From Candidatus Binatia bacterium (lineage in GTDB: Bacteria; Verrucomicrobiota; Verrucomicrobiia; Limisphaerales; UBA8199), in contig DATMQA010000007.1 of NCBI GenBank assembly GCA_035566895.1, positions 54,395 through 118,394 of the forward strand: a stretch of DNA of 64,000 nt, in the 5' to 3' direction. This document shows, in pieces, positions 12,914 to 55,303 of the stretch; the stretch's first letter is position 1; each line of letters begins with the position of its first letter. The position numbers and the translations under genes are program-made. The notes beneath the pieces were generated by a model. It saw only the letters and a list, made by a program, of their open reading frames with translations. It ran no database searches and had not been told where the DNA came from.

Positions 12914-13049
12914 ATGTCGGATTCTGGTGCAAAGGGAAACCAGATAGAAATCGGTCTAAGAGCGTGTAAAAACTGTAGCAGCCGACGTAAGGCTCTGATC
13001 CTATACTAAAGGTGGCAGAAATTTGAGCCTCCTTGCGTCGGCTGCTATA

Positions 13050-14561
13050 ATGGGAATGATTTTCAAACGCGCTCTCAAAGGCTTCATGAAACCGTGTGGC
13101 ACGCTTTTTGTCGCAGTCCTGTTCGGCTTGGCCAGGGCGGCGAATGCCGCCTCCCCGGGCAATGCGCCGCCCTTGCCAATCACCGGGACCCGCATCGTGA
13201 ACGTGAACACCGAAGCGCAACTGCAAACGGCTACAGGGAATCTGCAAAGCGGCGATACGATCCTGCTTGCCGACGGCACCTATAATCTGACCAGCAGCCT
13301 TTATATCAACGGCCGGAATGGAGTCACGATTCGCGGGTCGGCCGGCAGCACGAATGTTGTCCTGGCCGGCAAGGGCATGGACAATACCAATTATGGCAAC
13401 GTCCCCTTCGGCATCTGGTCCAACGGCACCAACACGACCATCGCTCATCTGACCATCCGCGACACCTGGGACAACGAAATTATCTTCAACGCGGGCGCCC
13501 AGTCGCCGCTCGTGTACTGTGTCCGCCTGCTCAACGCCGGTTCGCAGTTCATTAAGTCCAACCCTACTGACGTCAACAGCGGTCTTGGCGTTAATAACGG
13601 CGTAGTCGAGTACTGTTGGTTTGAGTACACCGGCAGTCCGCCAGGCGACCACGGCTCAGGTGTCGGCTACTTCAACGGCATCAGCGCCCATGCGGCGCAA
13701 AACTGGGTTGTTCGGGGGAATCTCTTCAAAAACCTTCATAACCCCGATTCCGCTGCTTACCTGTGGAACCCGGCCGTTTTGTTCTGGCGTCATTCGGTGA
13801 ACACGCTCACTGAGCAGAATACCTTTCTCAACGTGGACCGGGCTGTGGCCTACGGGTTGGACAACACCACGCCTTACTTCGACCACGCCGGCGGTGTCAT
13901 TCGCAACAATTTTGTCTGCCTTATTCCAGGTCTGATGAGCGCTGGTCGCACCGCCGGCTCGGACGGCTCGCTCATTGCCTGGAACTCTCCCGGCACACAA
14001 ATCGACCACAACAGCGTCTTGCTCAACGGCAATGAGTTTTATGCGGTCGAATTCCGCTTTTCCAACACCACCAACGGCACGGCGCGCAACAACCTTGCCG
14101 ACGCACCGATTCACCTGCGCGATAGCGCCACCGCCACGCTCGGCTCAAATCTCGTCACCGCCGTGCCGGGGATGTTTGTCAACTCTGCCATCGCTGACCT
14201 GCATTTGCTGGCCTCGGCAACCAACGCAATCGACAAAGGGCTCACCCTCTCTACGGTAACGAACGATTTCGACGGCGACCGGCGCCCGAGGGGCGCCAGT
14301 TCGGACCTCGGCGCCGACGAGTTCACGACCAACGCACCGCCGCAATTCACTCGCGTGAAGCTGGTGGGCGCCAGTGTGGCGCTCGATTTCACAACCTTCC
14401 TTGGCGAAAGTTATGACGTGCTGCGTGCCGACGCTTTGAGTGGTGCCGCCTGGGGTCTTTTGGCCACGAACCTCCCGGGGACCGGGGCAGCTATTCAAGT
14501 CACCGATACGAACGCGCTCGTCCCCTCCAGCCGATTTTATCGGGCTCGAATATCGCCGTGA
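13050..14561 (+). CDS. secreted right-handed beta-helix protein with a C-terminal FYR-P module
   Basis: Signal peptide, parallel beta-helix-like repeats (NVVLAGKGMDNTNYG..IAHLTIRD), DFDGDRRPRG..DLGADEF, and a tail ending SSRFYRARISP-stop. Confidence 0.75.
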   Translation: MGMIFKRALKGFMKPCGTLFVAVLFGLARAANAASPGNAPPLPITGTRIVNVNTEAQLQTATGNLQSGDTILLADGTYNLTSSLYINGRNGVTIRGSAGSTNVVLAGKGMDNTNYGNVPFGIWSNGTNTTIAHLTIRDTWDNEIIFNAGAQSPLVYCVRLLNAGSQFIKSNPTDVNSGLGVNNGVVEYCWFEYTGSPPGDHGSGVGYFNGISAHAAQNWVVRGNLFKNLHNPDSAAYLWNPAVLFWRHSVNTLTEQNTFLNVDRAVAYGLDNTTPYFDHAGGVIRNNFVCLIPGLMSAGRTAGSDGSLIAWNSPGTQIDHNSVLLNGNEFYAVEFRFSNTTNGTARNNLADAPIHLRDSATATLGSNLVTAVPGMFVNSAIADLHLLASATNAIDKGLTLSTVTNDFDGDRRPRGASSDLGADEFTTNAPPQFTRVKLVGASVALDFTTFLGESYDVLRADALSGAAWGLLATNLPGTGAAIQVTDTNALVPSSRFYRARISP

Positions 14562-14687
14562 CTAGCCCAGCCGCCAGTTTGCTTCAGCAATGCTTTGCGA
14601 AGACCAACGCCAACAAAGGAAATTTCCACTGCTTCCTCTGGCCCAAAATTGTGGGAAATTCATACCCAAAAATCATAAATCCACCGG

Positions 14688-14739
14688 CCCTCTACTATGT
14701 ATGGTGCGACAGACCTTGTCCAACGGTGGACAAGCTGCT
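14688..14739 (+). repeat. 52-nt copy of the core motif of the 37.4-kb tandem units, with an internal hairpin
   Basis: CCCTCTACTATGTATGGTGCGACAGACCTTGTCCAACGGTGGACAAGCTGCT matches 37533-37584 at about 43 of 52 positions (hand count). It contains the hairpin TTGTCC-N6-GGACAA. Confidence 0.75.
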
Positions 14740-14818
14740 TTTGGTCGGTTGCCACATACAATGGAGGCACCCTATTGATCTTGACGCTGACTCGTCTTCC
14801 TGGCCACATTGGGGTCGT

Positions 14819-16144
14819 ATGAAACGACGCCAATTCCTCAAATCCGTTGCGTTCACCGGGGCCGCTGGACTGATTCTTCCCCGCCTAAAGCTTTTCGGCG
14901 CCGATGCGCCGAGCAACAAGTTGAACGTGGCCCTGATTGGAACCTGGGGGCGGGGGGAGGCCCACTTCGGCGGGCTCGCCAGTGAAAACGTTGTCGCTCT
15001 CTGCGACATCAATGAGGAACACCTGGCTTACGGCGCGAGGAAATTTCCGAATGCCAAACAGCATTTCGATTGGCGTAAGTGCCTCGACCAAAAAGATGTC
15101 GAGGCCGTCGTCTGCTGCAGCCTCGACCACACGCATGCCTTTGTCGCCAATTGGTCGATGAACCGGGGCAAGCACATTTACTGCGAAAAGCCCCTGGCCA
15201 ATTCCGTCGAGGAAGCGCGCGTCGTTCGCGCCAACTATCTCAAGAACAAGAACAAGCTCGCCACCATGGTGGGCACGCAGCGGCACGAGTACGAGAATTT
15301 CAATCGCGTGCGCGAGTTGATCCGCGACGGCGCCATCGGCCAACTCCAGGAGGTTTCGGCCTGGGGCGACCGCAAAATTCCGCGCCCGGGCTATCCCGCC
15401 GGCGCCGGCGAGCCCCCGAAGCACATTCATTATGACCTGTGGATTGGCCCCTCGCCGTTCCATCCTTACAGTCCGGAATACTTCAAAGGCGGCCCGGGCA
15501 TGAACTGTTTGTCCTGGAACATGTACTGGGATTTCGGCAGCGGGCAGGTCGGCGACATGGGCAGCCACACGATGGACCTGGCCTGGAACGCGCTGGACGC
15601 CGAACTGCCGGTTTCGGCCGAGGCCAAGGGCGACGCCTTCAACCCGGACGTCACGCCTGTGAAATTGGAAATGCATTTCGAGCTCCCGGCCAATTCCTGG
15701 CGGCAGGCCATCAAATGTTCGTGGTACCAGGGCGGCGCGCTGCCGGAATCCCCCTCCCGCTATATTGACCTCAAGAAGATCGACCACGGGGCGCTCTTCG
15801 AAGGCAGCCAGGGCGCGTTGGTCGCCGATTTCACCACCCGGGCGATTTACCCGCTGCGCAACGCCGACTTCACGTATTACAAGCCGCGCGCCAAAGCCGA
15901 CCTCCTCCCCCCGGTGGGCAATTTCCAGAAACAGTGGATCAATGCCTGCAAAGGCAGCTTGAAGACCTGCTGCGATTTCGATTACGGCAGCAAAATGATC
16001 GAGATGATGCTGCTGGGGTTGGTGGCCTATCGTGCCGGCAGGAAGATCCAATACGATGGCGCCGCCGGCAAAGTGATCGACTGCTCGGAAGCCAACGATT
16101 TCCTGCGCCGGACTTACCGCGAAGGCTGGACGCTGAACGGGTAG
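14819..16144 (+). CDS. Gfo/Idh/MocA family oxidoreductase with a twin-arginine signal
   Basis: MKRRQFLKSVAFTGAAGL (Tat motif), Rossmann segment LNVALIGTWGRG, EKP motif (YCEKPL). The track start at 14558 is rejected in favour of ATG 14819. Confidence 0.85.
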   Translation: MKRRQFLKSVAFTGAAGLILPRLKLFGADAPSNKLNVALIGTWGRGEAHFGGLASENVVALCDINEEHLAYGARKFPNAKQHFDWRKCLDQKDVEAVVCCSLDHTHAFVANWSMNRGKHIYCEKPLANSVEEARVVRANYLKNKNKLATMVGTQRHEYENFNRVRELIRDGAIGQLQEVSAWGDRKIPRPGYPAGAGEPPKHIHYDLWIGPSPFHPYSPEYFKGGPGMNCLSWNMYWDFGSGQVGDMGSHTMDLAWNALDAELPVSAEAKGDAFNPDVTPVKLEMHFELPANSWRQAIKCSWYQGGALPESPSRYIDLKKIDHGALFEGSQGALVADFTTRAIYPLRNADFTYYKPRAKADLLPPVGNFQKQWINACKGSLKTCCDFDYGSKMIEMMLLGLVAYRAGRKIQYDGAAGKVIDCSEANDFLRRTYREGWTLNG

Positions 16145-19682: not shown

Positions 19683-21881
19683 TTACGGCAGCTCGGACGC
19701 GCGGTAGAAACGATATGGGAAATTGCTCGCGCTGGAATCGAGCAGGAAAAACAGGTTGGACGGGGCGACATTTGTGTTTAACGAGAGCCAGTTCGAGAAA
19801 TCCGTCGTCGCTTGGAAGACGTAGGTTTTGCCCGCCAAACCGGATAACTGCGGCTGGAATTGATGGTTGCTCAGATAGGTCCAGGACGTGAACCGCACCG
19901 GCGGCCGAATCGTGAACACACCATTCGTGGCCGCACTGTTGCTAAACCCCGGCTTGAAGGCCTTGGCGGTTACCGTGGCGCTATTCGTCAGGGTGAACGG
20001 CCCCGAATAAGGCAGCGAGTTCGTTGTCGGAATCGAGTTATCCAGCGTGTAATAAATCGCCGCTCCTGGGGTGGCATCGGTGAACGTCACGGTAACCGAA
20101 CTGAAGAATGTGCCGCCGTTTGGGGAAATGACGGGCACAGCCGCGATCGTGGAGCCGTACACGGTCAGTGCCGATTGGCCGCCAACATAGACCTTGCCAT
20201 TGGCAACGACAGGGAAGGTGAACTTGACAGCCTCCGGCCCCTGGTCGCGGCCGCCGGGGGCCTGGTTGCTGTTGTAGAGTTCCGTGGCGAGTTGGGCGGC
20301 ATCATAGGCGTGCAACACCGCCGCGCCATTATATTGCAGGATCCACACGATTCCATTGGCCGCGCCGTTGGCGGAGATGGCAGGTGTAGCGCCGGGATAC
20401 CCGAAGGTGATGGAGGACTGGCCAACGAGCGACAGCAGACCATTGGAAAAGATGAAACTCTTCAGGTTGTCGCCGGCGCCCGCGTAATAGATTTGGCTGT
20501 TAAAGTATGCGGGTGGACCAAATGCCCCATATACCGAACCGACCGCTGCGGGCAGGGTCTGCACGATATTGTCAGTATTTTGATTGAAATGCCCCATATT
20601 ATCCCGATCGAGGAGGTAAATTTTGCCTGCCTTTCCGCAACCCACCAGCAGATGCGGATGCCCGGGGCTGCCGACCGAATCAGGCAGGACGATAACGCCA
20701 GAGGAGCCGAGATCGAGGTCCGAGTTGTTTAAGTTGTTCTGATCAAAGGGGGTGAAGTAATCCACAAGCCTAAGGCCGGGGCTGTTGGTGAGTTTGAAGA
20801 AGGAATCTCCATAGTTCGAGTTCGTAGGGAAGCCACTGGCGTTCAGAGTGGTATCGAAGGTCCCGTTTCCAGTAACGGCGTAAATGTTTCCCTGCCCATC
20901 CGCGGCCGGGCCCCCGCCGCTGTGCCAAATTCCACCGCCGCCTCCATTGGGAGTCGAATTGTAAACCGTAGCCAAGGTGAGAGTTTGGGCGTCGTAGCCG
21001 AGCAGCCAACCGTGAAAAGGCCCGTTATCTCCATGCGAGGCGAACGCGATATAGACGATGCCGTTGAGCAGCAGCAATCCTGGCCGATTCAGTTGCCGCA
21101 GCGCATTGAATTTAACCACCCCGCCAATATTGCCGTCGCCGGTGCCCGGCACCGACGGCCCTGACACGTAGATGTAACTGGTATTAGTGTAGATCGTATC
21201 CGCGATCACCACCGGTCCGCCGAATTTTTCCGCTCCGCTCGTCACGTCCAGCGCATGCAGTCGGTGTACGCAGTGCGTCGCGCCGCTGACAATCTCTTTG
21301 GTCTTGGCCTCGACATAAATGGCGCCGCTGTTCGGGTCAATCACCGGCGTGCTGGTCACGCCAATCTCCGGTGTGATGTCGGACGAGGCGACATCGCCGC
21401 TGGGAACGGTCGTTACTCCTGCGCCATTCAGAAAGCTCACTTTCCAGAGGGGAGCGCCGTCGGCACCGCTGTTATCGTCGGCATCGAAGGCATAGACGCT
21501 GTCATGCTCGGTAACCACGAAGACGACGTTGTGGAGGCCTTTGCCGGGGATCGGAACGTTGGTCAGGACCAGCGGTTGGCCGTAAACCTGGCCGTCCAAC
21601 GCCTGGCTGAAGAGTTTGCCGAAAGTGCTGACATTGATGTTGCCGGGCGTCAGTATCGTTTCGTTGGTGTTTTGGCCTGTCCGCGCGTTGTCGTTGTGGT
21701 AAGTCAGAACTTGGGTTTGGCTGCGGCCACCGACAATGCTCAGGCAAAGCCCGGCGAGCAAGCACAGGGACGGGTTGGGTGAAGTGCATCGCCTGACCGA
21801 CCTAAATCGGCCGAGCCACAATTTGCCGTCATCCGGCACGCGAGAGGTGAGTGTTGAGCTATTCTCGCTCGGGCCGGGCAT
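19683..21881 (-). CDS. secreted PQQ-like beta-propeller protein with a chitobiase-type Ig domain and a C-terminal FYR-P module
   Basis: YHNDNARTGQN...GQVYGQPLV...VFVVTEHDSVYAFDADD (propeller), AAIYYTLDNS..P...S..Y.GPF (Ig), and a tail ending YRFYRASELP-stop. The start is uncertain (ATG 21881; track 22085). Confidence 0.7.
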   Translation of the reverse strand: MPGPSENSSTLTSRVPDDGKLWLGRFRSVRRCTSPNPSLCLLAGLCLSIVGGRSQTQVLTYHNDNARTGQNTNETILTPGNINVSTFGKLFSQALDGQVYGQPLVLTNVPIPGKGLHNVVFVVTEHDSVYAFDADDNSGADGAPLWKVSFLNGAGVTTVPSGDVASSDITPEIGVTSTPVIDPNSGAIYVEAKTKEIVSGATHCVHRLHALDVTSGAEKFGGPVVIADTIYTNTSYIYVSGPSVPGTGDGNIGGVVKFNALRQLNRPGLLLLNGIVYIAFASHGDNGPFHGWLLGYDAQTLTLATVYNSTPNGGGGGIWHSGGGPAADGQGNIYAVTGNGTFDTTLNASGFPTNSNYGDSFFKLTNSPGLRLVDYFTPFDQNNLNNSDLDLGSSGVIVLPDSVGSPGHPHLLVGCGKAGKIYLLDRDNMGHFNQNTDNIVQTLPAAVGSVYGAFGPPAYFNSQIYYAGAGDNLKSFIFSNGLLSLVGQSSITFGYPGATPAISANGAANGIVWILQYNGAAVLHAYDAAQLATELYNSNQAPGGRDQGPEAVKFTFPVVANGKVYVGGQSALTVYGSTIAAVPVISPNGGTFFSSVTVTFTDATPGAAIYYTLDNSIPTTNSLPYSGPFTLTNSATVTAKAFKPGFSNSAATNGVFTIRPPVRFTSWTYLSNHQFQPQLSGLAGKTYVFQATTDFSNWLSLNTNVAPSNLFFLLDSSASNFPYRFYRASELP

Positions 21882-22171
21882 GGTGGCAACATAACGTGGA
21901 GGGATCGGCAAGGCAAGAAAGGTTCCGTTGGGGGCTGGTCGGCGGCGCGGAGACGCCCGGGCGACGAACCACCAGTTCGAGCGGCAGGGCGCCCTGGCGC
22001 ACGCCGCGCATTTTGTTGGAGTGCCAGCCATAGTAACGGACCAAGCAACTGGCGGTTGTCCAGCTTTCTTCGAAGTTGGTTCCAACCTACCGCTTGCAGT
22101 CGTTCTGTGCTATAGTTCCGCGGGTTCAGGGGAAGGCAACAAGTTCGATTGCCGGGGGCGAGAGGCCGACA

Positions 22172-22990
22172 ATGAAAGATTTCATCCACATTGGAATAGC
22201 CGCTGCGACTTGTGCCATCGGAGCCGCTCTTGCACTGTCGGCGGCCACAGCGAGGGCCCAGACGAACCTGGTCGTCAACGGGAGTTTTGAGGCGGGGCCG
22301 GCTGGCCAGGGGAAATTTACGGGCTGGGGGTGGCTTGGTCCCTCGGACAACTTCAGCGACTACGGCGTTATCCAGTCAACAGCTTCTCCCGACGTGGCCG
22401 AGCAGGGCAATTATTACGCCTACTTTCGCGGACATCCGACCGACAATTCGCAGGATTGCCTCGGCACCACCGTCAGTCTGAAACCCGGCGCGCTGTACAA
22501 CATCGGCTACTATCTGGGCACGGACGGCTCGACGCTGGGCACGGGCGCCGCGATGTGGGTGGTGATCGGCACGTCGTTTGGCATCGACCTGAGCCAGGAC
22601 ATCATGTTGACCGCCTATTTCCCAAATTCCTCCAACGCCCTGCCTTACCAGGAGTTCAGCACCAACTACGTGGCCACGACGGCTTCGCCGATCCTGTCGT
22701 TTCACGGAATTAACGCCACCAACGGATTGGCCGCGACCAATGCAATCCTGCTGGACAGCGTGTGGGTGACGTTGATTTATCCGCCGCTGAACCTGAGCCT
22801 GTCCCCTTCCAACCAGCTTGTCTTCACCTGGCCCTACACGAACAGCCCGTACCGGCTGCAAGCCAATGCTTCGCTCACCACCACGAACTGGATTACCTTG
22901 ACGAATGTGCCTGCAAACGCCGGCACGAACAACAGGATTGTGCTGCCCGTGGCTGCGGGCCGTCAGTTTTACCGGCTGACGCTGCCGTAG
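22172..22990 (+). CDS. secreted jelly-roll/CBM-like protein with a C-terminal FYR-P module
   Basis: MKDFIHIGIAAATCAIGAALALSAATARAQ signal peptide, NLVVNGSFE opening typical of DUF642/CBM-like folds, and a tail ending RQFYRLTLP-stop. Confidence 0.7.
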   Translation: MKDFIHIGIAAATCAIGAALALSAATARAQTNLVVNGSFEAGPAGQGKFTGWGWLGPSDNFSDYGVIQSTASPDVAEQGNYYAYFRGHPTDNSQDCLGTTVSLKPGALYNIGYYLGTDGSTLGTGAAMWVVIGTSFGIDLSQDIMLTAYFPNSSNALPYQEFSTNYVATTASPILSFHGINATNGLAATNAILLDSVWVTLIYPPLNLSLSPSNQLVFTWPYTNSPYRLQANASLTTTNWITLTNVPANAGTNNRIVLPVAAGRQFYRLTLP

Positions 22991-23040: not shown

Positions 23041-24435
23041 TCAAGTGTCCTCTAGTTTTCTTCCTCGGCGGAAAAATCTGATCATCAAATATCCGAGCCA
23101 AACCAGCGCCACGACGGCAAAAGCCCTGACCATCGTGCGCCGACGGGCCTCTCGTTGGGCATCCTGGAGCCGTCTAAGGGTTTTGCGCGATTCTGTGTCT
23201 GTCAGTCCAGCCGATTGAATTTTGGCGGCAACCCTCTCTGCGACCTCCAGTGAACCCGGAAATGACTCGTCCGTCCAGAACCGGCGGCTCTTGCGGAAAT
23301 AGCCAGTTTCATCAAGCAGTTCCACCGGAAACATATAGGAGGAGCCTACGGTGTCTTCGTCCATCAGCTTGAATGAGCCGTCGGCGTTTAATGTTTCGCT
23401 CAAGCAGAAGGTTATCATCTGGCGCATTTCCGCGCGCGCGAGTTCACGCTGGTTCTCGCTCATGGATGGCCAGCAGATGCGAAACAGCCGCACCACGGCG
23501 TAGTTGTGGTGATTGGATGGTTTGCCTTCTTCCAGCCAGCCATACGGATACTCGAGCTCTTTGAACGCCAGCGTGGTGCGAATCATCTCCGGAATATGTT
23601 TAAGGTTATTGTGGCGATAAGAGATGATGTGGAATGTCACGCTCAAGTCGGACGTTTTCCGTATCTCGCCGTTCTCTTGCTTGTACCAGGCGCCCCAGTA
23701 ACCCGTCTCCGGGTTCTGCCAATGATCATCCTCATACTCCAGCAACGCCTGCTTCAGCCCTGGAGCGAACGGATAGACATCTCCCAGTTCGCCTTGGATG
23801 AGCCGTTCGATCGCCGTGATGGCGAGGTTGAGTTCGAATCGATTGTCAATCCCCTTATGACGGATATCTGAAATCAGAACCGAGTCCATGTAGTTGCGCA
23901 ATTTCTCCGGGCTGTTGATCCGGTCCAGGAGCTTGAGCGGAAACTTCGGTCGCTCTCCACGGCTGGAGCGGTCTTCGAGCTCCTCCAAAGTTGAATCCAG
24001 TTTCAGGAACCACGCTTCACTGCAATGATCGTAACTGCCATCGGCCTCGACCTGCTCGCGGGCATCCGCCGGATCGGCGGGACGCGCGAGCATTTCGCGA
24101 AGGTCATGCAAGCGCCCCTCGAGGCGCTGCCACTGTGCTGAATAGGTAAGCCACCGCGCTTCGAGGAAAATTTGCCGGGAGCAGGGGGTTGCCCGTCCGC
24201 CTGCCGTTTGACGGGCTAGTTCCAATTGTAACTCCCGCAACTCCTTCGTGTATTGCCGTCGCTTTTCGAGAAATTGAGGATCGAACGCCAAAAAATCCCT
24301 GGTGGTGTCATAACCAAAGAGGCTGCGCGATGCGCCACGTGACGTCGGCGCCGTTTGAGCCTTCGCGTCAAACACGCACAACACCGCGGCCATCGCGAGG
24401 AATTTTACCCATGCGTGCCGGATGGAGCGCGTCAT
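23041..24435 (-). CDS. hypothetical secreted protein with a C-terminal TM anchor
   Basis: Signal peptide MTRSIRHAWVKFLAMAAVLCVFDAKAQ and C-terminal TM FAVVALVWLGYLMIRFF. No family recognised. Confidence 0.55.
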   Translation of the reverse strand: MTRSIRHAWVKFLAMAAVLCVFDAKAQTAPTSRGASRSLFGYDTTRDFLAFDPQFLEKRRQYTKELRELQLELARQTAGGRATPCSRQIFLEARWLTYSAQWQRLEGRLHDLREMLARPADPADAREQVEADGSYDHCSEAWFLKLDSTLEELEDRSSRGERPKFPLKLLDRINSPEKLRNYMDSVLISDIRHKGIDNRFELNLAITAIERLIQGELGDVYPFAPGLKQALLEYEDDHWQNPETGYWGAWYKQENGEIRKTSDLSVTFHIISYRHNNLKHIPEMIRTTLAFKELEYPYGWLEEGKPSNHHNYAVVRLFRICWPSMSENQRELARAEMRQMITFCLSETLNADGSFKLMDEDTVGSSYMFPVELLDETGYFRKSRRFWTDESFPGSLEVAERVAAKIQSAGLTDTESRKTLRRLQDAQREARRRTMVRAFAVVALVWLGYLMIRFFRRGRKLEDT

Positions 24436-24690
24436 GTGCCGGGCAGCTTGGCAAGCTTTCGTGCGTAGCTCAACAGGATTCACCGGAGGCGTCAAACTCC
24501 CGGTCGAGGTCGCGGGGCAACTCAACCGCATAGCCTGGCCGAAAGCTGTCCTGCGCACACCCGACTTCGTGGTCTATGCTGTGGACTTCGAACTTGCGGG
24601 CCTGCGGAAGAACCTGAAGCGAATCTTGTCGCCAGACAAACTGGCCGCCCTCAAAGCTGCAGGCTTGTTTTAAGCACAACAGTAATAATA

Positions 24691-25872
24691 TTACCACGTT
24701 TCGGGGTGGGGCTGGTGATCGTTGTTCCAACGCGAGCGGGCAGGAATGTCCTCGACGATCCAACGCGCCTGGCGGGACCATTGAACGTGGGCGTCGCAGA
24801 ACACCATGTTGGCGCCGCCGGAATGACGCGACGGGACTACGCAGTCAACGCTTCCGAGAGGTTGTTTGTGCCATGGGCTGATAATGGTGCACCAAAGCTG
24901 GCTGGGCAATTGAAGGTCGCCCAGTTCAATCATGTCCGCGGGGCAGGTCAGGGCGGTTGAGCGGATGAAATGGGCTTTGCCGAAGCCGAGGCCAAGGTTG
25001 CTTTCCATGTGAACGTAAATCTGGCTGCTGCCGCCGGCGTCGTAGCCGAAGGAATCGGATTTCAACGATTTGTTCCAGTTCAAATGCGGCTCGTATTCGG
25101 GACACGAGAAGATGTCCGAATGCGGGCCTACGTACGGCTGGATGCGGACGGTCCAGGAATTAGTCGAGGGAAAGTCCCAAGGGAAATGATTGGTGGCGAT
25201 CAGCGCCTCACCGGCACCGGGCAGGAAGCCGAAATCCGATTCATACATCGCCAGGGCATGACCCATCTGCCGAAGGTTATTTTTGCACGTGGTCGTTCGC
25301 CCCCTGGTTTTGGCCGCGGCAAGGCTGGGGAGCAGCAGTGAGGCGAGCAGACCCATGATGGCGAGCACCATCAATAATTCGAGTAGCGTGAAGCCGCTCT
25401 CGGGTTTTTGAGGCGGGTTTTCCGGTTCTCTCGCCAATTGCACGCGCAGCTCGTGAAGTTCTTTGCGCAGCTCGGCGATTTGGCGGGGCATTTCGAGCAA
25501 GGCTTGAGACCGGGCTTCCCGCCGCGCGCGGACAAACTCCCAGCGGTAGCGGAAGACATAGATCGCTGAGAGCAGCAGCGCCGTCAGCGGCGAAAGGATG
25601 ATGACCAAGGCAAGAAGCTTGACGAGCCATTCTGGGAAATTGACCCCGCGGCCCATGGTGAAAAGCGCCAAGGCATAGAGGGCGATAAACAGCGTTGCGC
25701 AACCGGCGGCAACGATGATGGTGATTCGCCGCGCGCGTTTCTCTTGTTGTTGTGCGCCGTCGAGACGTTCGATGACTTTGCGCCGGTGTTCCTCGAACTC
25801 TTTGGAGTTCAGGAGGCTGTCCTGTGCGAAGAGCAAATTGAGATAGTCATCGGACGGTGTGGATTCTTTCAT
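24691..25872 (-). CDS. anti-sigma-position membrane protein fused to a prepilin-type (DUF1559 / H-X9-D) pseudopilin
   Basis: ATGA overlap with the ECF sigma stop. It has two TM helices and a coiled coil, then G|FTLLELLMVLAIMGLLASLLLP at residue 160/161, and a C-terminal HSGGANMVFCDAH motif. Confidence 0.75.
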   Translation of the reverse strand: MKESTPSDDYLNLLFAQDSLLNSKEFEEHRRKVIERLDGAQQQEKRARRITIIVAAGCATLFIALYALALFTMGRGVNFPEWLVKLLALVIILSPLTALLLSAIYVFRYRWEFVRARREARSQALLEMPRQIAELRKELHELRVQLAREPENPPQKPESGFTLLELLMVLAIMGLLASLLLPSLAAAKTRGRTTTCKNNLRQMGHALAMYESDFGFLPGAGEALIATNHFPWDFPSTNSWTVRIQPYVGPHSDIFSCPEYEPHLNWNKSLKSDSFGYDAGGSSQIYVHMESNLGLGFGKAHFIRSTALTCPADMIELGDLQLPSQLWCTIISPWHKQPLGSVDCVVPSRHSGGANMVFCDAHVQWSRQARWIVEDIPARSRWNNDHQPHPETW

Positions 25873-26444
25873 AAACGTTTCCTTTCAACGATGTTGCGCA
25901 GAGCAATCCGGGCATGATACAGCCGGCTTTTTACCGTGCCGGGCAGACAATCCAGGACGGCAGCCACTTCGTGAGTGGAGAGGTCGCGCAGGTAATGGAG
26001 GACAAGGATCTCCCGGTGATGAGGCGGCAGAATTTCCAACGCCTTATGCAAGGCTTCGGCACCCAGGGCGATGTCGCCGTCGGCTGCTGCAGGTTCGCTC
26101 CAGGTATCGACGAGAGACGCAGTGACTTGTTCCTGACGGATTTCGTTGCGCACAAATCGAGCCGCCTTGTGATGGGCGATGCGATAGAGCCAGGCCCGGA
26201 ACGCTTCGGGTATTTGGAGCGATTTCAATCCGCGAAATGCCTCGAGCCAGACTTCTTGATGAAGATCAAGCGCATCGTCAGCGTTTGGGACCAGACGCCG
26301 CAAGTAATAAAGCAGCGGCCTTTCGTGACGATTGAGCAGACGAACGAATGCGTCAGCGTCACCCGCCTGGGCTTCAGAAACCCAGAGGGCTTCTTCGAGT
26401 CGGCCAAGCTTTTGCTCGGGCGAACCTGTTGGGCCAGGATCCAT
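25869..26444 (-). CDS. ECF (sigma-70 family group 4) sigma factor
   Basis: Region 2 (RPLLYYLRRL..DALDLHQEVWLEAF) and region 4 (REILVLHYLRDLSTHEVAAVLDCLPGTVKSRLYHAR). The start is taken at ATG 26444. Confidence 0.9.
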   Translation of the reverse strand: MDPGPTGSPEQKLGRLEEALWVSEAQAGDADAFVRLLNRHERPLLYYLRRLVPNADDALDLHQEVWLEAFRGLKSLQIPEAFRAWLYRIAHHKAARFVRNEIRQEQVTASLVDTWSEPAAADGDIALGAEALHKALEILPPHHREILVLHYLRDLSTHEVAAVLDCLPGTVKSRLYHARIALRNIVERKRL

Positions 26445-26560
26445 CGTTTCTTTATGGTGTCCCGAAGCCGAGCAACGGTTCAAACTTTCTAACACGACAT
26501 TGGGGAATTTGGCGCCTGTTTTCCACCGGTGTGGTATATTGAGCCGGAAGGAGAAAAAAT

Positions 26561-26693
26561 ATGGAACCAAGAATTGATTATACGAAAGTATCTCGAGGGG
26601 CCTTTAAGGCCATGTTCGGATTGGGCCAGTATCTTCGGTCCAGTGGGTTCCCGGAGGGCCTGCTCAACCTGGTGAACCTTCGGGTTTCTCAGT
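26561..26693 (+). pseudogene. N-terminal fragment of a carboxymuconolactone decarboxylase (AhpD-like) family gene
   Basis: IDYTKVSRGAFKAMFGLGQYLRSSGFPEGLLNLVNLRVSQ matches the family up to the point where the conserved (I)NGC..C motif should follow. Similarity stops at about 26693. Confidence 0.55.
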
Positions 26694-33558: not shown

Positions 33559-34155
33559 TCAGGTCATATACGGGGCTCGCATGGCGCGGGAGCGCATGCG
33601 GTTGGCTTCGGGATCACCGGGAAACTCGGCCTTGCTTAGATCGAACTTGAGGTTTCGCTTTAGCTGCTCGCAGATGTCGGCAGCCAGGCAGATGTTCATG
33701 GCGCGACGCATGACTTCAGGATTCGCCACCGTGAGCCGGCGCGACCGGATCGAGTCGAGGAAATCCCGCACGTGGTTCAGCGGGCGTTGTGTCCGGGCGG
33801 TGTAGTCGGCCAGCACTTTTTTGTATTCCTGCAACAGCGCCGGCGATGAGACATCTGGCCCTGAATAGCCGTCGGCGGCGGCGACCCATCCTTCCGGACC
33901 GTCGAATCGCTCACCACAAGCGCCATGCCAGAACTTGCACGGTTCCCAAACCGAGCCGGGAGAGCGGAACAGAACCAGGTTTACGCCGTTGGACAACCGC
34001 GTCACCATCGACGCGTCCGGTCCCTCATACTCGAACTGGATAAAGGACACATTCGTCATATCGAGTCCGGCAAGGGCTTGGGTAACTGAGTGCGCGCCCC
34101 ACATCGCGACGTCGGTAGCGAAATCATAATAGTGATACCACCCTGCTCCGTTCAA
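33559..34155 (-). pseudogene. C-terminal half of a Gfo/Idh/MocA oxidoreductase, lacking the Rossmann domain
   Basis: YHYYDFATDVAMWGAHSV...NHVRDFLDSIRSRR...NICLAADICEQLKRNLKFDLSKAEFPGDPEANRM parallels the C-terminal half of the intact paralog at 14819..16144. The frame opens directly at the stop codon of the LRR gene (34156-34158). Confidence 0.6.
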
Positions 34156-37023
34156 TCAAGGAACCGCTTTCAGCCGGTAAAAGGTCTGCGCCGAACCCGC
34201 GGCCGTCCCGTCGGTCCAGTCTGTGACCCCCGTTGTATTCGCAACCTGGCCAAGAGAACTCCATTCGCCGAGAACGGTCGAGGCTTGCACTTCCAGGCGC
34301 AACCCAGGCGGGCCATGCAGCCGAAGGCGCGGCGCGCCATTCATCGGCGAGACGGGCGGCTCGATCCAAACGGAAGAAAGCGGGACTTCGCGCAGCCTGT
34401 AGAAACGAGCGCCGGAAGAGGCTCCCGCATCTACAAACGTCCGCAATACCGTCGGGTTCGCTATCACCGCCAGCGTGGACCACTCCCCCAGGTTCGTCGA
34501 AACCATCACCGCAAAGAGCCGGCCCGGCATCCCGTGGAGAATCAGCCCGCACTGCCCGTTCCCCGGCCGCCCATCCAACTCCAGCCAGCTTTGGACCGGC
34601 AGCGGCTGTTGCGACTCGGCATAGACGTAAACCCCGCGGTTGGTCAGCGCCTGGAGCAGGCTGAGGTTCGGCGACCCGAGGTTCAAACTCAAATAATTCC
34701 CATTGAGGTTCACGTACGAATTCGATACAACCGCCGGCAGGGTCGCAAGATCGGTAAGCAGATTCCCGCTCACATCGAGGACTTGGATATTTGTCAGGTT
34801 CGCTAGCGCAGAAAGGTTGCTCAGCCAATCGCTTGCCAGGCCAACGGATGAGAGCCGTTGAAGTCCAGCCAGCCCAGCCAGGCTCGAGAGCCGGCAACCA
34901 TTCATGGTCAGGGAGGTCAGATTGGTCAGGCCGGCCAGTCCGTCGCAGTTCGTTACCGGGTTGTCGGACACGTCCAGAGTGTAGAGTGACCACAACCCAC
35001 CCAGTGGACTCAAATCAGAGATGTGGTTTTGACTAAGATGCAGGTAATAGAGTTGGTGCAGTCCGGACAGGCAATCGGCGTTCGTCAGCGACGCCCCCTC
35101 CAGCATCAGCTCTGTCAGATTGGTAAGCTCGCTTAAGGGCGCACAGTTGCCGATGGGCACGAGAGTGAGGTTCAGGTAAGACAAGCTGGTCAAACCCGCT
35201 AGCGGCGAAATATCTCTCAAGGGAGTGCCGGTCAGGTTCAAGTTCTGGAGGCGAGTGAGGTTGCTCAATGCCGCTATATTCGTCACGGCCGTGTAATCGA
35301 GATCGAGCGAGAACAGATTGGTCATCGACGACAACCCCGCGCAATTGAAGATCGGATTCTGGGACAGGGTCAAGTAGTTCAGGTTCGTCAAACCGGATAA
35401 GGGCGTTAGGTCGCTGAGTTGGTCCCCGTACAGGCGCGCATAGTTCAACCGGCTCATTCCGGCGAGGCACGCCGCGTCCATGGTGCCGGCATTGTCCGCG
35501 ATCAGAGTCTGGAGATTCGTCAGGCCGCCCAGGCCGGAGCAGTTGGTGATGGTGTTTTGGCTTACCGTCAGAGAAGTCAGGCCGCCCAAACCGGCCAGTG
35601 GCCCGAGATCCCCGATGCGGTTTCCGTAAAGGTTAAGGCTGCTCAGTTGGGTTAACCCTGCGAGCCCAACGATGTTCGAGAGCAAGGTTGAATTAAGGCT
35701 CAGGTTCACCAGGTTCGTCAGCCCAGCCAGCGCCGCGCAAGTGCCAACGGGATTATCGTCGGCCATCAGCGTTTGCAGCAGCGTTGCTCCCGCCAGCGGA
35801 CCAAAGTCGCCTATGTTTTGACCCGATAAGCTCAAAGCCGTGAGTTGGCTCATGCCCGCCAGGCAGTCGATATTGGTAAGCGCCGGCACAGGCGGAGGTC
35901 CTCCTGGCCGAATGATGGTGGGAAAGGCGTAGGCGTGGGTCAGATCCAGGTTTGTCAGCCCGGTCATCCCAGCAAGCGCCGAACAATCTTGCAGGAGGTT
36001 CCCATTGAGGATGAGGTTCTGTAAATTCGTCATTCCCGCCAGGGGTGACACATCCCAGACTGCCCTCCCGGTCAGGTTCAGGGAAATGAGCCTGGTCAGC
36101 CCGGAAAGGCTCCCCAGCGCGAAAGCCTTCGAGGGGTCGGCTGATTGCGGGCCCAGCAGCACGGGGGCTCTGCCATACGCGTTCAAATTGAGGTCGCTCA
36201 GGTTGGTCAACCCCGCCAGGGGCGCGCAATTTGTAATCGCGCTCCCGGCCAGATTGAGCATTTCCAGGCGGAACAGCCCCGCCAGCGGGAAGAAGTTGGT
36301 TATTCCATTGTATCGCAGGTCTAGCCACCGCAGTTCGCCCAACGCGGCAATCCAATCGAGGTTCGTTATCTGACACCCACCGAGGCCGAGATTCGTCAGG
36401 TTGACCAGGTTGGCCAGGGCGGTGCCGGTTGTAATCGGATTGCCGCTAAGGTCCAGGGATTGCAAACGGCTCAACTGCTGGAGCGGAGCGACGTTGGTCA
36501 CCTCCGTGCCCGCGAGACCCAGGCGGACCAGCGCTTGCAGGTTTGACAGGCAACTCGGATCCTCCAAAGGGGCCGCACGACCGAAGCGGGGCAAAATCGG
36601 CAGGATCGGGTATCCTAAAAGCTGAGCACCATACGGGTCCTTCAGGTCCAAACTTGTCAGGTTTGTCAATCCCGACAACGGAGTGTAGTTCGTTGTCGCA
36701 TTTCCGCTGAGGTTCAGGTTCGTCAGCCCTGTCAGTCCCGTTAGTGGCGCAAGGTCCCCCGCCGAATCGTTGCTTAAGCTCAGGCTTCCCAGATTTCTTG
36801 CCCACTCCAAGCCGGACAAACTCCTGATCCCGAGATTCGAACCGTCCAGACCGGTCAATAGGTTCAGGTCATTCGTGGTGAGGACCCCGGTCGGCTTGTT
36901 CAGCGCCGCCCGGACCGCCGATTCAAGCCTCCCATCCGCAAACTGCACCTGCGCCTGCCCCAAAGCCGTGCCGGCCATCCCGGCCAGAAAAGACAAAACC
37001 AACACGCGGCTCAAAGTTTTCAT
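34156..37023 (-). CDS. secreted leucine-rich-repeat protein with two tandem C-terminal FYR-P modules
   Basis: Signal peptide, then about 30 LRR units (L.GLTNLT.L.L..N.I.D..PLAGL), then ...ARFYRLREVP and ...QTFYRLKAVP-stop. Confidence 0.85.
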   Translation of the reverse strand: MKTLSRVLVLSFLAGMAGTALGQAQVQFADGRLESAVRAALNKPTGVLTTNDLNLLTGLDGSNLGIRSLSGLEWARNLGSLSLSNDSAGDLAPLTGLTGLTNLNLSGNATTNYTPLSGLTNLTSLDLKDPYGAQLLGYPILPILPRFGRAAPLEDPSCLSNLQALVRLGLAGTEVTNVAPLQQLSRLQSLDLSGNPITTGTALANLVNLTNLGLGGCQITNLDWIAALGELRWLDLRYNGITNFFPLAGLFRLEMLNLAGSAITNCAPLAGLTNLSDLNLNAYGRAPVLLGPQSADPSKAFALGSLSGLTRLISLNLTGRAVWDVSPLAGMTNLQNLILNGNLLQDCSALAGMTGLTNLDLTHAYAFPTIIRPGGPPPVPALTNIDCLAGMSQLTALSLSGQNIGDFGPLAGATLLQTLMADDNPVGTCAALAGLTNLVNLSLNSTLLSNIVGLAGLTQLSSLNLYGNRIGDLGPLAGLGGLTSLTVSQNTITNCSGLGGLTNLQTLIADNAGTMDAACLAGMSRLNYARLYGDQLSDLTPLSGLTNLNYLTLSQNPIFNCAGLSSMTNLFSLDLDYTAVTNIAALSNLTRLQNLNLTGTPLRDISPLAGLTSLSYLNLTLVPIGNCAPLSELTNLTELMLEGASLTNADCLSGLHQLYYLHLSQNHISDLSPLGGLWSLYTLDVSDNPVTNCDGLAGLTNLTSLTMNGCRLSSLAGLAGLQRLSSVGLASDWLSNLSALANLTNIQVLDVSGNLLTDLATLPAVVSNSYVNLNGNYLSLNLGSPNLSLLQALTNRGVYVYAESQQPLPVQSWLELDGRPGNGQCGLILHGMPGRLFAVMVSTNLGEWSTLAVIANPTVLRTFVDAGASSGARFYRLREVPLSSVWIEPPVSPMNGAPRLRLHGPPGLRLEVQASTVLGEWSSLGQVANTTGVTDWTDGTAAGSAQTFYRLKAVP

Positions 37024-41695: not shown

Positions 41696-42316
41696 CTAAG
41701 GCACCACCAAAACAATGTAAAACCTCATCGCGCCCGAACGCGTCGAGTCGAACGCCGATACGTTTGTTCCCGTGCCGGTTAACGGAGCGCCCAGCGGCTG
41801 CCAGTTCGTTCCCGCCAGGTTCGTCGACCATTCCACTTGGTACCTAGTGTTCGTCACGGTCGGAAACGAAATCTCGACTGCCGGGAATATGCTCGGCGTC
41901 GGCCCGGTAGCGGTAACCACGTCCAACTTCCCGGACCATTCGGAAAGCGAACCCGTATTGCACCCGCCGATAAAACCCTCGGCTTGGAGCTGGAGCAGAT
42001 GTGAACCGTGCGCGACCGGCCCGAGATTAAACCAGCTCGACGCAGCCCCGGGCACCAGGATTTCCGTCTCCGCCCGCTCCTGTCCATCCACAAGGAAATG
42101 GATGCGAATGTACGAACAGTCCGCCGCTGGCGCTGTATATCGCGCGGTCAGAACCCCTGAGGTCCGCACCGGCTGGTTGAACGTGTTGCTGCAGATCTCA
42201 CCGTAACCCGAACACGATATCGCCGGAAGGGCGTAGGTGTTGGTCGTCGTCTGGGCCGACGCGGCAGCAGCGCAAAAAAATGCGGCCAGGGCAAGGCTCA
42301 ATGAGTTGGTTTTCAT
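41696..42316 (-). CDS. small secreted protein with a C-terminal FYR-P module
   Basis: Signal peptide MKTNSLSLALAAFFCAAAASAQ. The tail is YQVEWSTNLAGTNWQPL...GAMRFYIVLVVP-stop. Confidence 0.7.
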   Translation of the reverse strand: MKTNSLSLALAAFFCAAAASAQTTTNTYALPAISCSGYGEICSNTFNQPVRTSGVLTARYTAPAADCSYIRIHFLVDGQERAETEILVPGAASSWFNLGPVAHGSHLLQLQAEGFIGGCNTGSLSEWSGKLDVVTATGPTPSIFPAVEISFPTVTNTRYQVEWSTNLAGTNWQPLGAPLTGTGTNVSAFDSTRSGAMRFYIVLVVP

Positions 42317-51598: not shown

Positions 51599-52243
51599 TC
51601 ATGGCACGCTCAGCCGATAAAACCGGCAGGGGTACTTTGACGCGTCCATGTCGGCGTACACCAGCAGGCTGTTGGTCCCCGTATTGGTGGTGCAAATCGT
51701 CGTCCATACCGGCGCGCTCAGGTTAGTGGCAGCCTGGATACAACATGGCTGCCCGGGCGCGCTGGGGAGGACGATACACATGCCGCCGTTCGCCATCCGG
51801 GTGACCCCGGGACACAGCGTGGCAACGTCCAAAGTACCCGTGTTCGTTTGCTGATTCGGGCTTCCTCCGTCCGCAGCGAGGACACTGAAAGGACTGGGTC
51901 CCGGGGGTGTCGTACTGGTAGTGGAGACGACCAGACTGGCGGTGGCTGAAGTGATTGGTTTGCCGGTAAATTTGATGGGGTTTGGAGAAAAGGCGGCAGT
52001 TGCTCCCGCTGGCAGACCTGCGGCGCTCAAATAAATCTCCATTTTGCCGTGGCCAGTCCTGGAGACCGTCACAACAAAGGTGGCATTACTGCCCTGGAGA
52101 ATCGGGTCCGGCGATTGGGGGCCGACCGTCACCGAAGTGAGAATCGGATCTGCCAAAGCGTTAGCGCCGAAGGCGACCAGCACTGCGAGCGCACCGACCA
52201 AAGATCTCCGGACTGTCTTTTCAGGGTTTTGCATATCTTTCAT
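51599..52243 (-). CDS. small secreted Ig-like protein with a C-terminal FYR-P module
   Basis: Signal peptide. The tail is IQAATNLSAPVWTTI...KYPCRFYRLSVP-stop. Confidence 0.7.
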   Translation of the reverse strand: MKDMQNPEKTVRRSLVGALAVLVAFGANALADPILTSVTVGPQSPDPILQGSNATFVVTVSRTGHGKMEIYLSAAGLPAGATAAFSPNPIKFTGKPITSATASLVVSTTSTTPPGPSPFSVLAADGGSPNQQTNTGTLDVATLCPGVTRMANGGMCIVLPSAPGQPCCIQAATNLSAPVWTTICTTNTGTNSLLVYADMDASKYPCRFYRLSVP

Positions 52244-54367: not shown

Positions 54368-55303
54368 TCAGGTTCGCCGGAAGTAAGCGTAGATGCTGCT
54401 GCCCCAACGGGGCAGGAGAAATTTCATTCCGGTCTTTCGGTAGAAGATTGAGAGCGCTTCGAGCACCGCGGGTCCTCCCAGCCGTCCTGGTTTGCCTAGC
54501 ACCGGTGCGAGCTGGTTGTGGACTTTCCAGAAATGAGTGATTTCCGAGCCTAACAGCCTGTCGCCACCGCTCTCGATCAGCGTCAATTGCGCGGCGCGGG
54601 CGCTTTGCTCGAAATCCTGCAGGCGCCAGCGCGTCAGATGATGCGGCGGCCATTGGTGAGGGTCCCATGGAACCAAACGGAGGACGCCATTGGCCGAAGG
54701 CACCGCAACAGAAATGAGGCCGCCTGGCCCGAGCCGCGCTGCCGCTTGCCGAAGAAGTGGGACCGGTTCCGGAACATGTTCCAGCACCTGAAAAAGTGTG
54801 ATGAGGTCAAACCCCTTCACGCCGGGTTTCAACCCATCAAGCAATTCGCTGAAGACCTGGTGCCCCTTTGCCCGCGCCTTTTCGGCGGCGGCCCCGTTCA
54901 ATTCCAAGCCCCAGGTTTCGCAGCCGGCCTGCCGTGCCAGATCAAGGAAGATGCCGCTACCGCAGCCTACGTCCAGCACCCGCCTCAGCCCGAGGCGCCG
55001 TGCCAGGCGCAATGTCCGCCCAAACTCCGGCCGGTTTTCGACAAAGTACTCGGCGTGCTCCAGTTCCTTGTAGAACGCCTCGTTGCCGGCGAGCGACGGC
55101 TCGAAGAATTCAAATCCGCAGCGCTCACACTGGCACGGCTCGATGATGTACTCCGGCGCGATCTTGCCCCACGCCGCGGCGCTAAAATCCCGTCCCACTG
55201 CCCGCCACAGCTTTCTCAATTCCTCGCCGCTGAGCTGTTCGACCGCCCGCGACTCGGGATGTGCGCAAAGGGGACAATTACAGCGGTCAATTTGAGATGG
55301 CAT
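54368..55303 (-). CDS. class I SAM-dependent methyltransferase with an N-terminal zinc ribbon
   Basis: CPLCAH...CERCG, then VLDVGCGSGIFL and FDLITLFQVLEHVPEP. Confidence 0.8.
   Translation of the reverse strand: MPSQIDRCNCPLCAHPESRAVEQLSGEELRKLWRAVGRDFSAAAWGKIAPEYIIEPCQCERCGFEFFEPSLAGNEAFYKELEHAEYFVENRPEFGRTLRLARRLGLRRVLDVGCGSGIFLDLARQAGCETWGLELNGAAAEKARAKGHQVFSELLDGLKPGVKGFDLITLFQVLEHVPEPVPLLRQAAARLGPGGLISVAVPSANGVLRLVPWDPHQWPPHHLTRWRLQDFEQSARAAQLTLIESGGDRLLGSEITHFWKVHNQLAPVLGKPGRLGGPAVLEALSIFYRKTGMKFLLPRWGSSIYAYFRRT

Follow-up and report, generated by a model that had tools for sequence, protein, structure and literature searches.

The described systems closest to the subject of this study act at the C termini of exported proteins. 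In the Bacteroidota, the C-terminal domain (CTD) of type IX secretion system (T9SS) cargo is an immunoglobulin (Ig)-like sandwich, and its extreme C terminus is functionally required (PMC11285876). The PEP-CTERM signal is a short tripartite one, consisting of a PEP motif, a transmembrane (TM) helix, and clustered basic residues, and interchange of tails among homologues has been taken to support the GlyGly-CTERM, LPXTG, and PEP-CTERM signals (PMC3237569). Here we describe a further C-terminal element, the FYR module, which was found in seven copies in a 64,000-nucleotide stretch of DNA (the window; positions 54,395 to 118,394 of contig DATMQA010000007.1, assembly GCA_035566895.1) from a soil member of the Verrucomicrobiota deposited as Candidatus Binatia bacterium. 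A preliminary description of the window had noticed the recurrence of this module on unrelated secreted proteins and had suggested that it behaves like a sorting or anchoring tag. Our tentative reading, weighed below against several alternatives, is that the module may be a folded tag for sorting to the cell envelope.

Verrucomicrobiota of the Limisphaerales/Pedosphaera type are abundant, mostly uncultured polymer degraders in soil, peat, and fresh water. We know of no described route by which their large extracellular proteomes are exported and displayed.

Results

Seven homologous modules in six proteins of the window

Seven copies of the module were located in six open reading frames (ORFs) of the window, each ending with Pro and then a stop codon. 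The ORFs were as originally described, and the envelopes of the hidden Markov model (HMM) matches lay within about 20 nucleotides of the module boundaries first proposed. The tails, of approximately 68 to 74 residues, shared the motif …Y.VQASTNL..W…D…RFYR(L/A)xx(x)P-stop. The carriers (predicted to be exported) and their modules (delimited by HMM) were as follows.

34156 to 37023, minus strand: leucine-rich repeat (LRR) protein of 955 residues, with predicted signal peptide MKTLSRVLVLSFLAGMAGTALG, an LRR array, and two tandem FYR modules
34381 to 34602, minus strand: internal FYR module (copy a) of the LRR protein, ending ...ARFYRLREVP, with copy b directly after it (HMM alignment, 810 to 883)
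34159 to 34380, minus strand: terminal FYR module (copy b) of the LRR protein, ending ...QTFYRLKAVP, with the stop codon at 34156 to 34158 (HMM alignment, 884 to 957 of 957)
13023 to 14561, plus strand: ORF of 512 residues for a beta-helix protein, with predicted signal peptide, parallel beta-helix passenger, and FYR module
14337 to 14558, plus strand: FYR module of the beta-helix (choice-of-anchor-Q-like) protein, ending ...SSRFYRARISP
19683 to 22085, minus strand: ORF of 800 residues, with a CHB_HEX_C_1/Fn3_assoc domain at residues 655 to 719 before the module (Pfam CHB_HEX_C_1, E value of 6.2e-17)
19686 to 19904, minus strand: FYR module of the 800-residue ORF (HMM alignment, 736 to 808 of 808)
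22076 to 22990, plus strand: ORF of 304 residues, with predicted signal peptide MKDFIHIGIAAATCAIGAALALSAATARA, a passenger resembling a carbohydrate-binding module (CBM) or, weakly, choice-of-anchor C, and FYR module
22784 to 22987, plus strand: FYR module of the 304-residue CBM-like protein, ending ...GRQFYRLTLP
41696 to 42316, minus strand: protein of 206 residues, with signal-peptide-like N terminus, passenger, and FYR module
41699 to 41899, minus strand: FYR module of the 206-residue protein, with the divergent motif ...MRFYIVLVVP
51599 to 52243, minus strand: protein of 214 residues, with signal-peptide-like N terminus, passenger, and FYR module
51602 to 51805, minus strand: FYR module of the 214-residue protein, ending ...CRFYRLSVP

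Pairwise identity between the tails was 21 to 28%, and the two copies in the LRR protein were 49% identical to each other. When each tail was held out in turn and an HMM was built from the others, the held-out tail was always the top nontraining match among 947 six-frame segments of the window, with E values of 1.1e-3 to 1.6e-9. An HMM derived from 583 database copies detected exactly these seven copies in the window and none besides (E values of 1.5e-9 to 1.3e-19). Recovery by both the leave-one-out and the independent database HMMs indicated that the similarity of the tails reflects real homology and not chance.

The passengers were mutually unrelated, as first described (best pairwise BLASTP E value, 0.1). 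All six N termini combined a basic N-region with a hydrophobic core and a small-x-small site, and the signal peptides assigned to them in the preliminary description were thus borne out as signal-peptide-like by hydropathy and inspection only. The LRR protein matched Pfam LRR_4 (E value of 1.8e-58) and LRR_8 (1.1e-27), and an identical protein was present on a 152-kb JGI metagenome contig. The beta-helix protein, for which gene callers use a start at MIFKRAL that yields 501 residues, gave weak matches to TIGR03805 and choice_anch_Q (23.9 bits for the latter, against a cutoff of 25), and some of its orthologues bear the NCBI name 'choice-of-anchor Q domain-containing protein'. The passenger of the 304-residue ORF matched TIGR04362 (7e-6) and CBM_4_9 (0.19), both under the model cutoffs. 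No Pfam or NCBIfam match was obtained for the 206-residue protein, and no family match was obtained in the same scans for the passenger of the 214-residue protein. In the latter, the signal region includes a sequence resembling a twin-arginine (Tat) motif, TVRRSLVGAL; the remaining five proteins look Sec type. The divergent longest ORFs at 19683 to 22085 and 22076 to 22990 overlap at their 5' ends (22076 to 22085), and each listed start is probably placed too far upstream, with the hydrophobic signal cores at residues 107 to 118 and 41 to 52, respectively.

An uncatalogued domain with a predicted beta-sandwich fold

The family consensus of the module was LLSLARLSNGQFQLTLTGTPGQTYVVQASTNLANWTTLGTNTAATNGTFTFTDPNAANFPQRFYRLVE. 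The most informative positions were W35, F63, Y64, R65, Y24, R62, and D53, and only W, F, and Y were near invariant. No model of Pfam-A (2025) or NCBIfam r20 (2026) covered the module, whether the six full proteins (E value of ≤1) or 34 isolated modules (E value of ≤10) were scanned. As a genuine T9SS CTD was picked up by this Pfam scan in a positive control (PF18962, 5e-15, on a Chitinophagaceae protein), the negative result for the modules is meaningful, and it agrees with the preliminary description, in which the module was not recognized as a named sorting signal. The module was also not described in the literature searched with its motif strings or for Limisphaerales/Pedosphaera, C-terminal sorting in Verrucomicrobiota, or choice-of-anchor proteins. 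Relative to Pfam-A, NCBIfam, the PDB, and the searchable literature, the FYR module is therefore undescribed, while being of a known kind, a lineage-specific C-terminal domain on unrelated exported proteins.

A confident AlphaFold2 model of copy b of the LRR protein, based on a 34-sequence alignment, contained six beta strands, with a predicted local distance difference test score (pLDDT) of 87.5 and a predicted template modeling score (pTM) of 0.74. The last strand, F67 to V73 (FYRLKAV), ran to the penultimate residue and Pro74 was final. According to this model, the module forms a domain of its own, a six-strand beta-sandwich of approximately 68 residues. Foldseek comparison with the PDB gave generic Ig/FN3-type sandwiches only (best E value, 0.03; query-normalized TM score [TMq], ≤0.69).

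A sequence search of the PDB gave a partial, 50-residue match to Paenibacillus CBM32 chains (E values of 0.016 to 0.018). Module positions 13 to 63, 'v.L.w....sY.iQvS.d...nW.tv.t.t.g.G', resemble the core of CBM32/discoidin domains (4zy9, 2rv9, and 4zxe; E value of 0.016), and one of the 34 isolated modules matched F5_F8_type_C_2 with an E value of 0.14. No match to CBM32 or F5_F8 type C extended across the whole domain, and the sequence resemblance could represent convergence or a very remote relationship.

Position of the module and selection on the chain end

The distance from the module to the next in-frame stop codon was determined in a six-frame translation of 1.08 Mb of DNA comprising the loci of 67 genomes, a measure utilized in order to avoid gene-calling bias. 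A stop codon followed within 10 residues in 81 of 92 module ORFs (88%) and within 5 residues in 75 of them. One copy was present in 81 of the 92 ORFs (88%), two were present in nine, and one ORF each had four and five. The extreme C-terminal location, which the preliminary description took to be invariable, was thus the rule in this sample and not an absolute one.

Among the 81 terminal-type proteins, the last residue was Pro in 55 (68%) and Gln in 13 (16%), compared with 7.7% and 6.3%, respectively, of 521 control ORFs. A second sample comprised 237 terminal and 286 internal copies. In this sample, 77% of the proteins with a terminal copy ended 4 to 5 residues after FYR, and Pro occupied the +4 and +5 positions after FYR in 30% and 57% of terminal copies versus 8% and 17% of internal copies. 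Over these two samples of the wider family, the frequency of terminal Pro was 61 to 68% and that of Gln was 14 to 16%. Among the best 120 orthologues listed for the beta-helix protein, the mean majority-residue frequency was 0.62 in the tail versus about 0.90 in the passenger, and the W, the F-Y, and the terminal Pro were each conserved at ≥0.9, with a value of 0.91 for the terminal Pro. The claim that the protein always ends in Pro therefore held for all six window proteins and for most of the wider family, but the residue was not universal and Gln was a clear second.

An artefact at the DNA level was rejected as the source of the terminal Pro: the four Pro codons and the three stop codons were all used, and stop codon usage was similar to that of the controls. 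As the terminal Pro is kept while the tail drifts, and as no Pro or stop codon is left unused, the chain end itself is under selection. The RFYR motif was also considered as a terminus-specific signal and was rejected, since internal copies conserve it almost equally. Conservation of the RFYR/W/D core in both types of copies indicated that the core is a signature of the fold and not a mark of the terminus.

These findings bear on the possibility that the module is a generic Ig-like structural domain without a targeting role, that is, a lineage-specific and easily duplicated stabilizer or spacer whose Pro cap would protect against carboxypeptidases or PDZ-type tail-specific proteases. Such a domain would account for fold matches limited to generic Ig/FN3 structures, for arrays and internal copies with the same core as terminal ones, and for a tail that evolves faster than its passenger. 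However, it is not obvious what a spacer would do at the extreme C terminus, where nothing follows it, and the terminal bias, together with the density of carriers, the interchange with PEP-CTERM tails, and the exported surface-type cargo reported below, points to a common function. We consider this explanation unlikely.

Family size and lineage

When 1.84 billion cluster representatives were searched exhaustively with HMMER, 67,028 proteins were detected with an E value of ≤1e-3, counted as representatives at 50% identity, and 9,696 at ≤1e-10; the highest-scoring proteins carried 2 to 10 tandem copies. A genome scan with the HMM consensus as the query gave 67 loci, nearly all of which were titled Verrucomicrobiota, Verrucomicrobiia, Limisphaerales, Pedosphaera, or "subdivision 3" metagenome-assembled genomes (MAGs), and the named database matches were likewise from Verrucomicrobia. 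The family is thus essentially confined to MAGs of the Verrucomicrobiota (Limisphaerales/Pedosphaera/"subdivision 3"). In the window, 6 of approximately 50 genes carried the module; outside it, there was about one extra carrier per 40 kb.

Some records had titles at odds with contigs of the Verrucomicrobia type, namely, uncultured Bifidobacteriaceae, Akkermansia muciniphila, Holophagaceae, and Candidatus Acidoferrum/Angelobacter (loci L003, L014, L017, L019, L029, L039, and L055; L045; L052; and database proteins P0267 and P0289). These titles are probably labeling or binning errors in public MAG records.

Cargo of the module and interchange with PEP-CTERM tails

Signal-peptide-like N termini were detected by a crude heuristic in 59 of 81 module ORFs versus 275 of 727 control ORFs (P = 2e-9), so that the association of the module with signal peptides was strong but not exclusive. 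Passengers among 81 carriers included fn3, Ig/I-set, cadherin-like, and Big domains, subtilases (Peptidase_S8), sedolisin pro-domains, GHL10, non-specific endonuclease, Laminin_G_3, cupredoxins, MauG-type heme enzymes, pectate lyase, GH44, BspA-type LRR, DNRLRE, and choice-of-anchor Q. This repertoire is typical of surface or secreted proteins. Choice-of-anchor families (NCBIfam NF041518 and others) are passengers that elsewhere are paired with differing C-terminal sorting signals, and carriers of the FYR module likewise included such passengers, choice_anch_Q matching 3 of the 81 (best E value, 2e-36). Small proteins with a signal peptide, one FN3 domain (…GVTYYFAATxYDxxGxES…), and then one FYR module recurred at nine loci (L002, L004, L007, L011, L019, L020, L028, L030, and L050) and may represent the minimal architecture within the family.

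The presence of secreted hydrolases among the cargo, including subtilases and sedolisins, raised the possibility of a cleavable C-terminal pro-domain resembling the bacterial pre-peptidase C-terminal (PPC) domain, which would aid folding or keep enzymes inactive in transit (e.g., through type II secretion) and then be removed. The size of the module (a beta-sandwich of ~70 residues), its C-terminal place on such enzymes, and the Pro-rich linker upstream of it in the window proteins are in keeping with this idea. Most carriers, however, are not enzymes but LRR proteins, Ig/FN3 arrays, and small binding proteins. Such a role would not readily account for tandem copies, and there was no Pfam PPC match; a pro-domain therefore appears very improbable.

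PEP-CTERM-type tails co-occurred with the FYR module, with 15 such tails in the fetched loci and none in the window. At three loci (L045, L047, and L051), adjacent tandem paralogues shared a signal peptide and an HpiC1-like passenger of approximately 210 residues ending in WD(F/L)DNVRL. After this junction, the upstream gene encoded VPEP, a TM helix, and basic residues, i.e., a PEP-CTERM tail, and the downstream gene encoded an FYR module ending in QRFYQARQLP. A fourth locus (L038) had the same arrangement of paralogues, with 48% identity over 239 residues, and identity between the swapped passengers at the four loci was 35 to 48%. Among the best 120 matches listed for the HpiC1-like family, 118 had an FYR module and 105 of those ended in Pro. 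The evidence for a swap comes from four loci because the listed homologues were mostly close orthologues of the beta-helix protein or FYR-bearing members of the HpiC1-like family. Given the accepted precedent of tail interchange (PMC3237569), the exchange of PEP-CTERM for FYR supports a role of the module in sorting or anchoring.

A conserved cluster with both types of tail was observed in five genomes (L034, L043, L048, L054, and L059; e.g., L054:6080-11245), in which two PEP-CTERM genes lie directly upstream of a gene for a protein of approximately 1,020 residues. This protein has two internal FYR modules (at about residues 500 to 665) and then a 356-residue C-terminal region that ends ...YRTxTxWxxLxP and has no Pfam match.

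Replacement of PEP-CTERM, an anchor signal associated with exopolysaccharide (EPS), at the same junction would also fit an alternative mode of anchoring. On this explanation, the module would be a beta-sandwich of the lectin-like or envelope-binding type that retains secreted cargo non-covalently on the cell's own surface glycan, lipopolysaccharide, or EPS matrix or on a common environmental polymer, as a functional analogue of SLH, GW, LysM, CWB2, or C-terminal CBM modules, and export across the outer membrane would follow a general route. Tandem arrays (2 to 10 copies) and internal copies are typical of binding modules that act by avidity, the conserved aromatic and charged residues (Y24, W35, D53, R62, F63, Y64, and R65) are kept equally in internal copies, and the weak partial resemblance to CBM32/discoidin points in the same direction. 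A retention module, on the other hand, has no need to end exactly 4 to 5 residues after its last motif or to have a selected terminal Pro or Gln; 88% of the carriers have a single copy at the very end, and no CBM or lectin family was matched by sequence or fold. We regard this explanation as possible but somewhat doubtful; in its fit to the data, such a module comes close to a secretion signal.

Genomic surroundings

The window consists of ordinary chromosomal DNA, with genes for ArgH, threonyl-tRNA synthetase (ThrRS), PPK2, RsmD, ABC transporters, an extracytoplasmic function (ECF) sigma factor, and a DUF1559 pseudopilin, and the module genes were dispersed among its housekeeping genes and not clustered. 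Neighboring genes were considered as candidate machinery for the module. Only genes for PAS histidine kinases recurred (13 loci); these are ubiquitous and were rejected.

Two module genes are each directly followed, on the same strand, by an ORF for an oxidoreductase of the GFO/IDH/MocA family. One (14558 to 16144, plus strand) overlaps the stop codon of the gene for the beta-helix protein at 14558 to 14561, and the other (33559 to 34155, minus strand) abuts the stop codon of the gene for the LRR protein at 34155/34156. The second ORF matched the GFO_IDH_MocA_C2 model in its C-terminal part only and may be truncated. At 24691 to 26570 (minus strand), the ECF sigma factor gene adjoins the DUF1559 gene, whose product has an N-terminal methylation motif (type II pseudopilin-like), and this is followed by a 505-residue protein (23041 to 24558) with a C-terminal TM helix and a basic tail. 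This arrangement is typical of the Planctomycetes-Verrucomicrobia-Chlamydiae (PVC) group and is unrelated to the FYR module.

Discussion

The FYR module is a domain found almost always at the end of the chain, on exported cargo, with a terminus that is under selection and with PEP-CTERM as its counterpart on paralogous passengers. These observations point, tentatively and somewhat short of a probable conclusion, to a folded C-terminal tag for envelope sorting that is specific to the Limisphaerales/Pedosphaera group of Verrucomicrobiota. As a tag of this type, the module would act on cargo that had entered the periplasm by means of its N-terminal signal peptide. The C-terminal FYR domain would then be recognized by a putative machinery, to which it would present a last strand, RFYR(L/A)xx, that is predicted to run to the penultimate residue, with the free end capped by Pro or Gln. 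The machinery would either move the cargo across the outer membrane or fix it there, possibly with cleavage of the tail, in a logic akin to that of the Bacteroidota T9SS CTD although no homology is implied. A bolder version, which we hold to be doubtful, is that the module is the cargo signal of an undescribed outer-membrane secretion or surface attachment pathway in these Verrucomicrobiota, which are among the most abundant bacteria of soil and fresh water. The pathway would be a T9SS analogue of independent origin with a cargo of perhaps a hundred proteins per genome or more, and the free, Pro- or Gln-capped last strand would contribute to its recognition.

Several results weigh against a sorting tag. 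Approximately 12% of the genomic module ORFs had two or more copies, and tandem arrays of up to 9 to 10 copies were detected in the database search. In 10 of the 92 ORFs (11%), the copies were internal or N-terminal only and were followed by Laminin_G_3, MauG, or the 356-residue region without a family assignment. Internal copies retained the same W, D, and RFYR core, and the terminal Pro could merely shield an essential last strand from exopeptidases. No conserved neighboring gene or candidate machinery was detected in the window or in the 67 loci, and profile scans and hhalign gave no homology of the module to any known sorting domain. The suggestion of a sorting or anchoring tag made in the preliminary description thus gains from the terminal bias, the enrichment of Pro and Gln, the swap with PEP-CTERM at four loci, and the extracellular nature of the cargo, and it loses from the tandem and internal copies and from the failure of the neighborhoods to yield a machinery.

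Whichever role applies, one uncatalogued domain marks a large share of the extracellular proteins of these bacteria, with six carriers in a 64-kb window and tens of thousands of metagenome clusters. A Pfam-style model of it would provide a predictor of the secretome and surface proteome of the lineage and better annotation of thousands of "hypothetical proteins." If a dedicated machinery reads the tag, phylogenetic profiling with the module HMM would offer a direct way to discover a secretion or sorting system new to bacteriology; if the module instead binds to the surface, it would represent a new anchoring chemistry for a diderm envelope.

Comparison with known systems

The PPC domain (PF04151) is, like the FYR module, a beta-sandwich of approximately 70 residues at the C terminus of secreted proteases; the carriers of the FYR module differ in being mostly nonproteases, and no Pfam PPC match was found for the module. 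The SLH, GW, LysM, and CWB2 domains and C-terminal CBMs share with the FYR module a location that is often C-terminal, a frequent tandem arrangement, and diverse extracellular passengers. Their conserved aromatic and charged residues are functional, and residues of these types are likewise conserved in the FYR module. In contrast to the FYR module, these families need no precisely defined chain end, and none of them was matched by the module in sequence or in fold.

FN3 and Ig domains belong to the same predicted fold class as the FYR module, which gave Foldseek matches to Tencon, FN3, and Ig structures. The scores against FN3/Tencon were low (TMq of 0.45 to 0.57; E value of >0.1), and the module may differ in having one strand fewer, six being predicted versus the seven of FN3; it also differs in ending the chain with its last strand. 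A divergent FN3 domain (PF00041) was rejected at the sequence level: there was no Pfam fn3 match, and comparison with nine genuine FN3 domains located directly upstream of the module in related proteins gave an hhalign probability of 0.2%.

PEP-CTERM (TIGR02595) resembles the FYR module in being C-terminal on exported proteins, in occurring in the same genomes, and in following the same junction on paralogous passengers. The FYR module differs from it in being a soluble, all-beta folded domain without a TM segment or hydrophobic helix.

The closest parallel is with the type A CTD of T9SS (PF18962/TIGR04183). Both are folded beta-sandwiches (the FYR module by prediction) of approximately 70 to 80 residues, not tripartite peptides, and both are located at the extreme C termini of functionally diverse signal-peptide-bearing or Sec-exported proteins that are secreted or displayed on the surface. 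Each genome encodes many carriers, between which the domain is highly divergent, and the chain end is conserved in both cases. The two differ in the tandem and internal copies of the FYR module and may differ in strand number, the T9SS CTD being a 3+4 sandwich of seven strands and the AlphaFold2 model of the FYR module having six. The module had no sequence match to the T9SS CTD family models (hhalign probability, 0.2%), and no T9SS CTD was among the top 50 Foldseek matches of its model. Genes for T9SS machinery (PorK/L/M/N, Sov/SprA, and PorU/V) were absent from the window, whose host lineage is Verrucomicrobiota and not Bacteroidota or the Fibrobacteres-Chlorobi-Bacteroidetes (FCB) group. 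A link to T9SS through weak matches in Chitinophagaceae was rejected, since an internal domain of these proteins happens by chance to match the consensus peptide NGTFTFTD; the proteins (L065:7658-10705, L066:4633-7635, and L068:1276-4302) are of approximately 1,000 residues, contain Big_5 domains, and end in a true PF18962 CTD that has no relation to the module. What is new in the FYR module is thus a fold that is predicted to be like that of the T9SS CTD and yet is unrelated to it, in a different phylum, with the formation of arrays and with a terminus capped by Pro or Gln.

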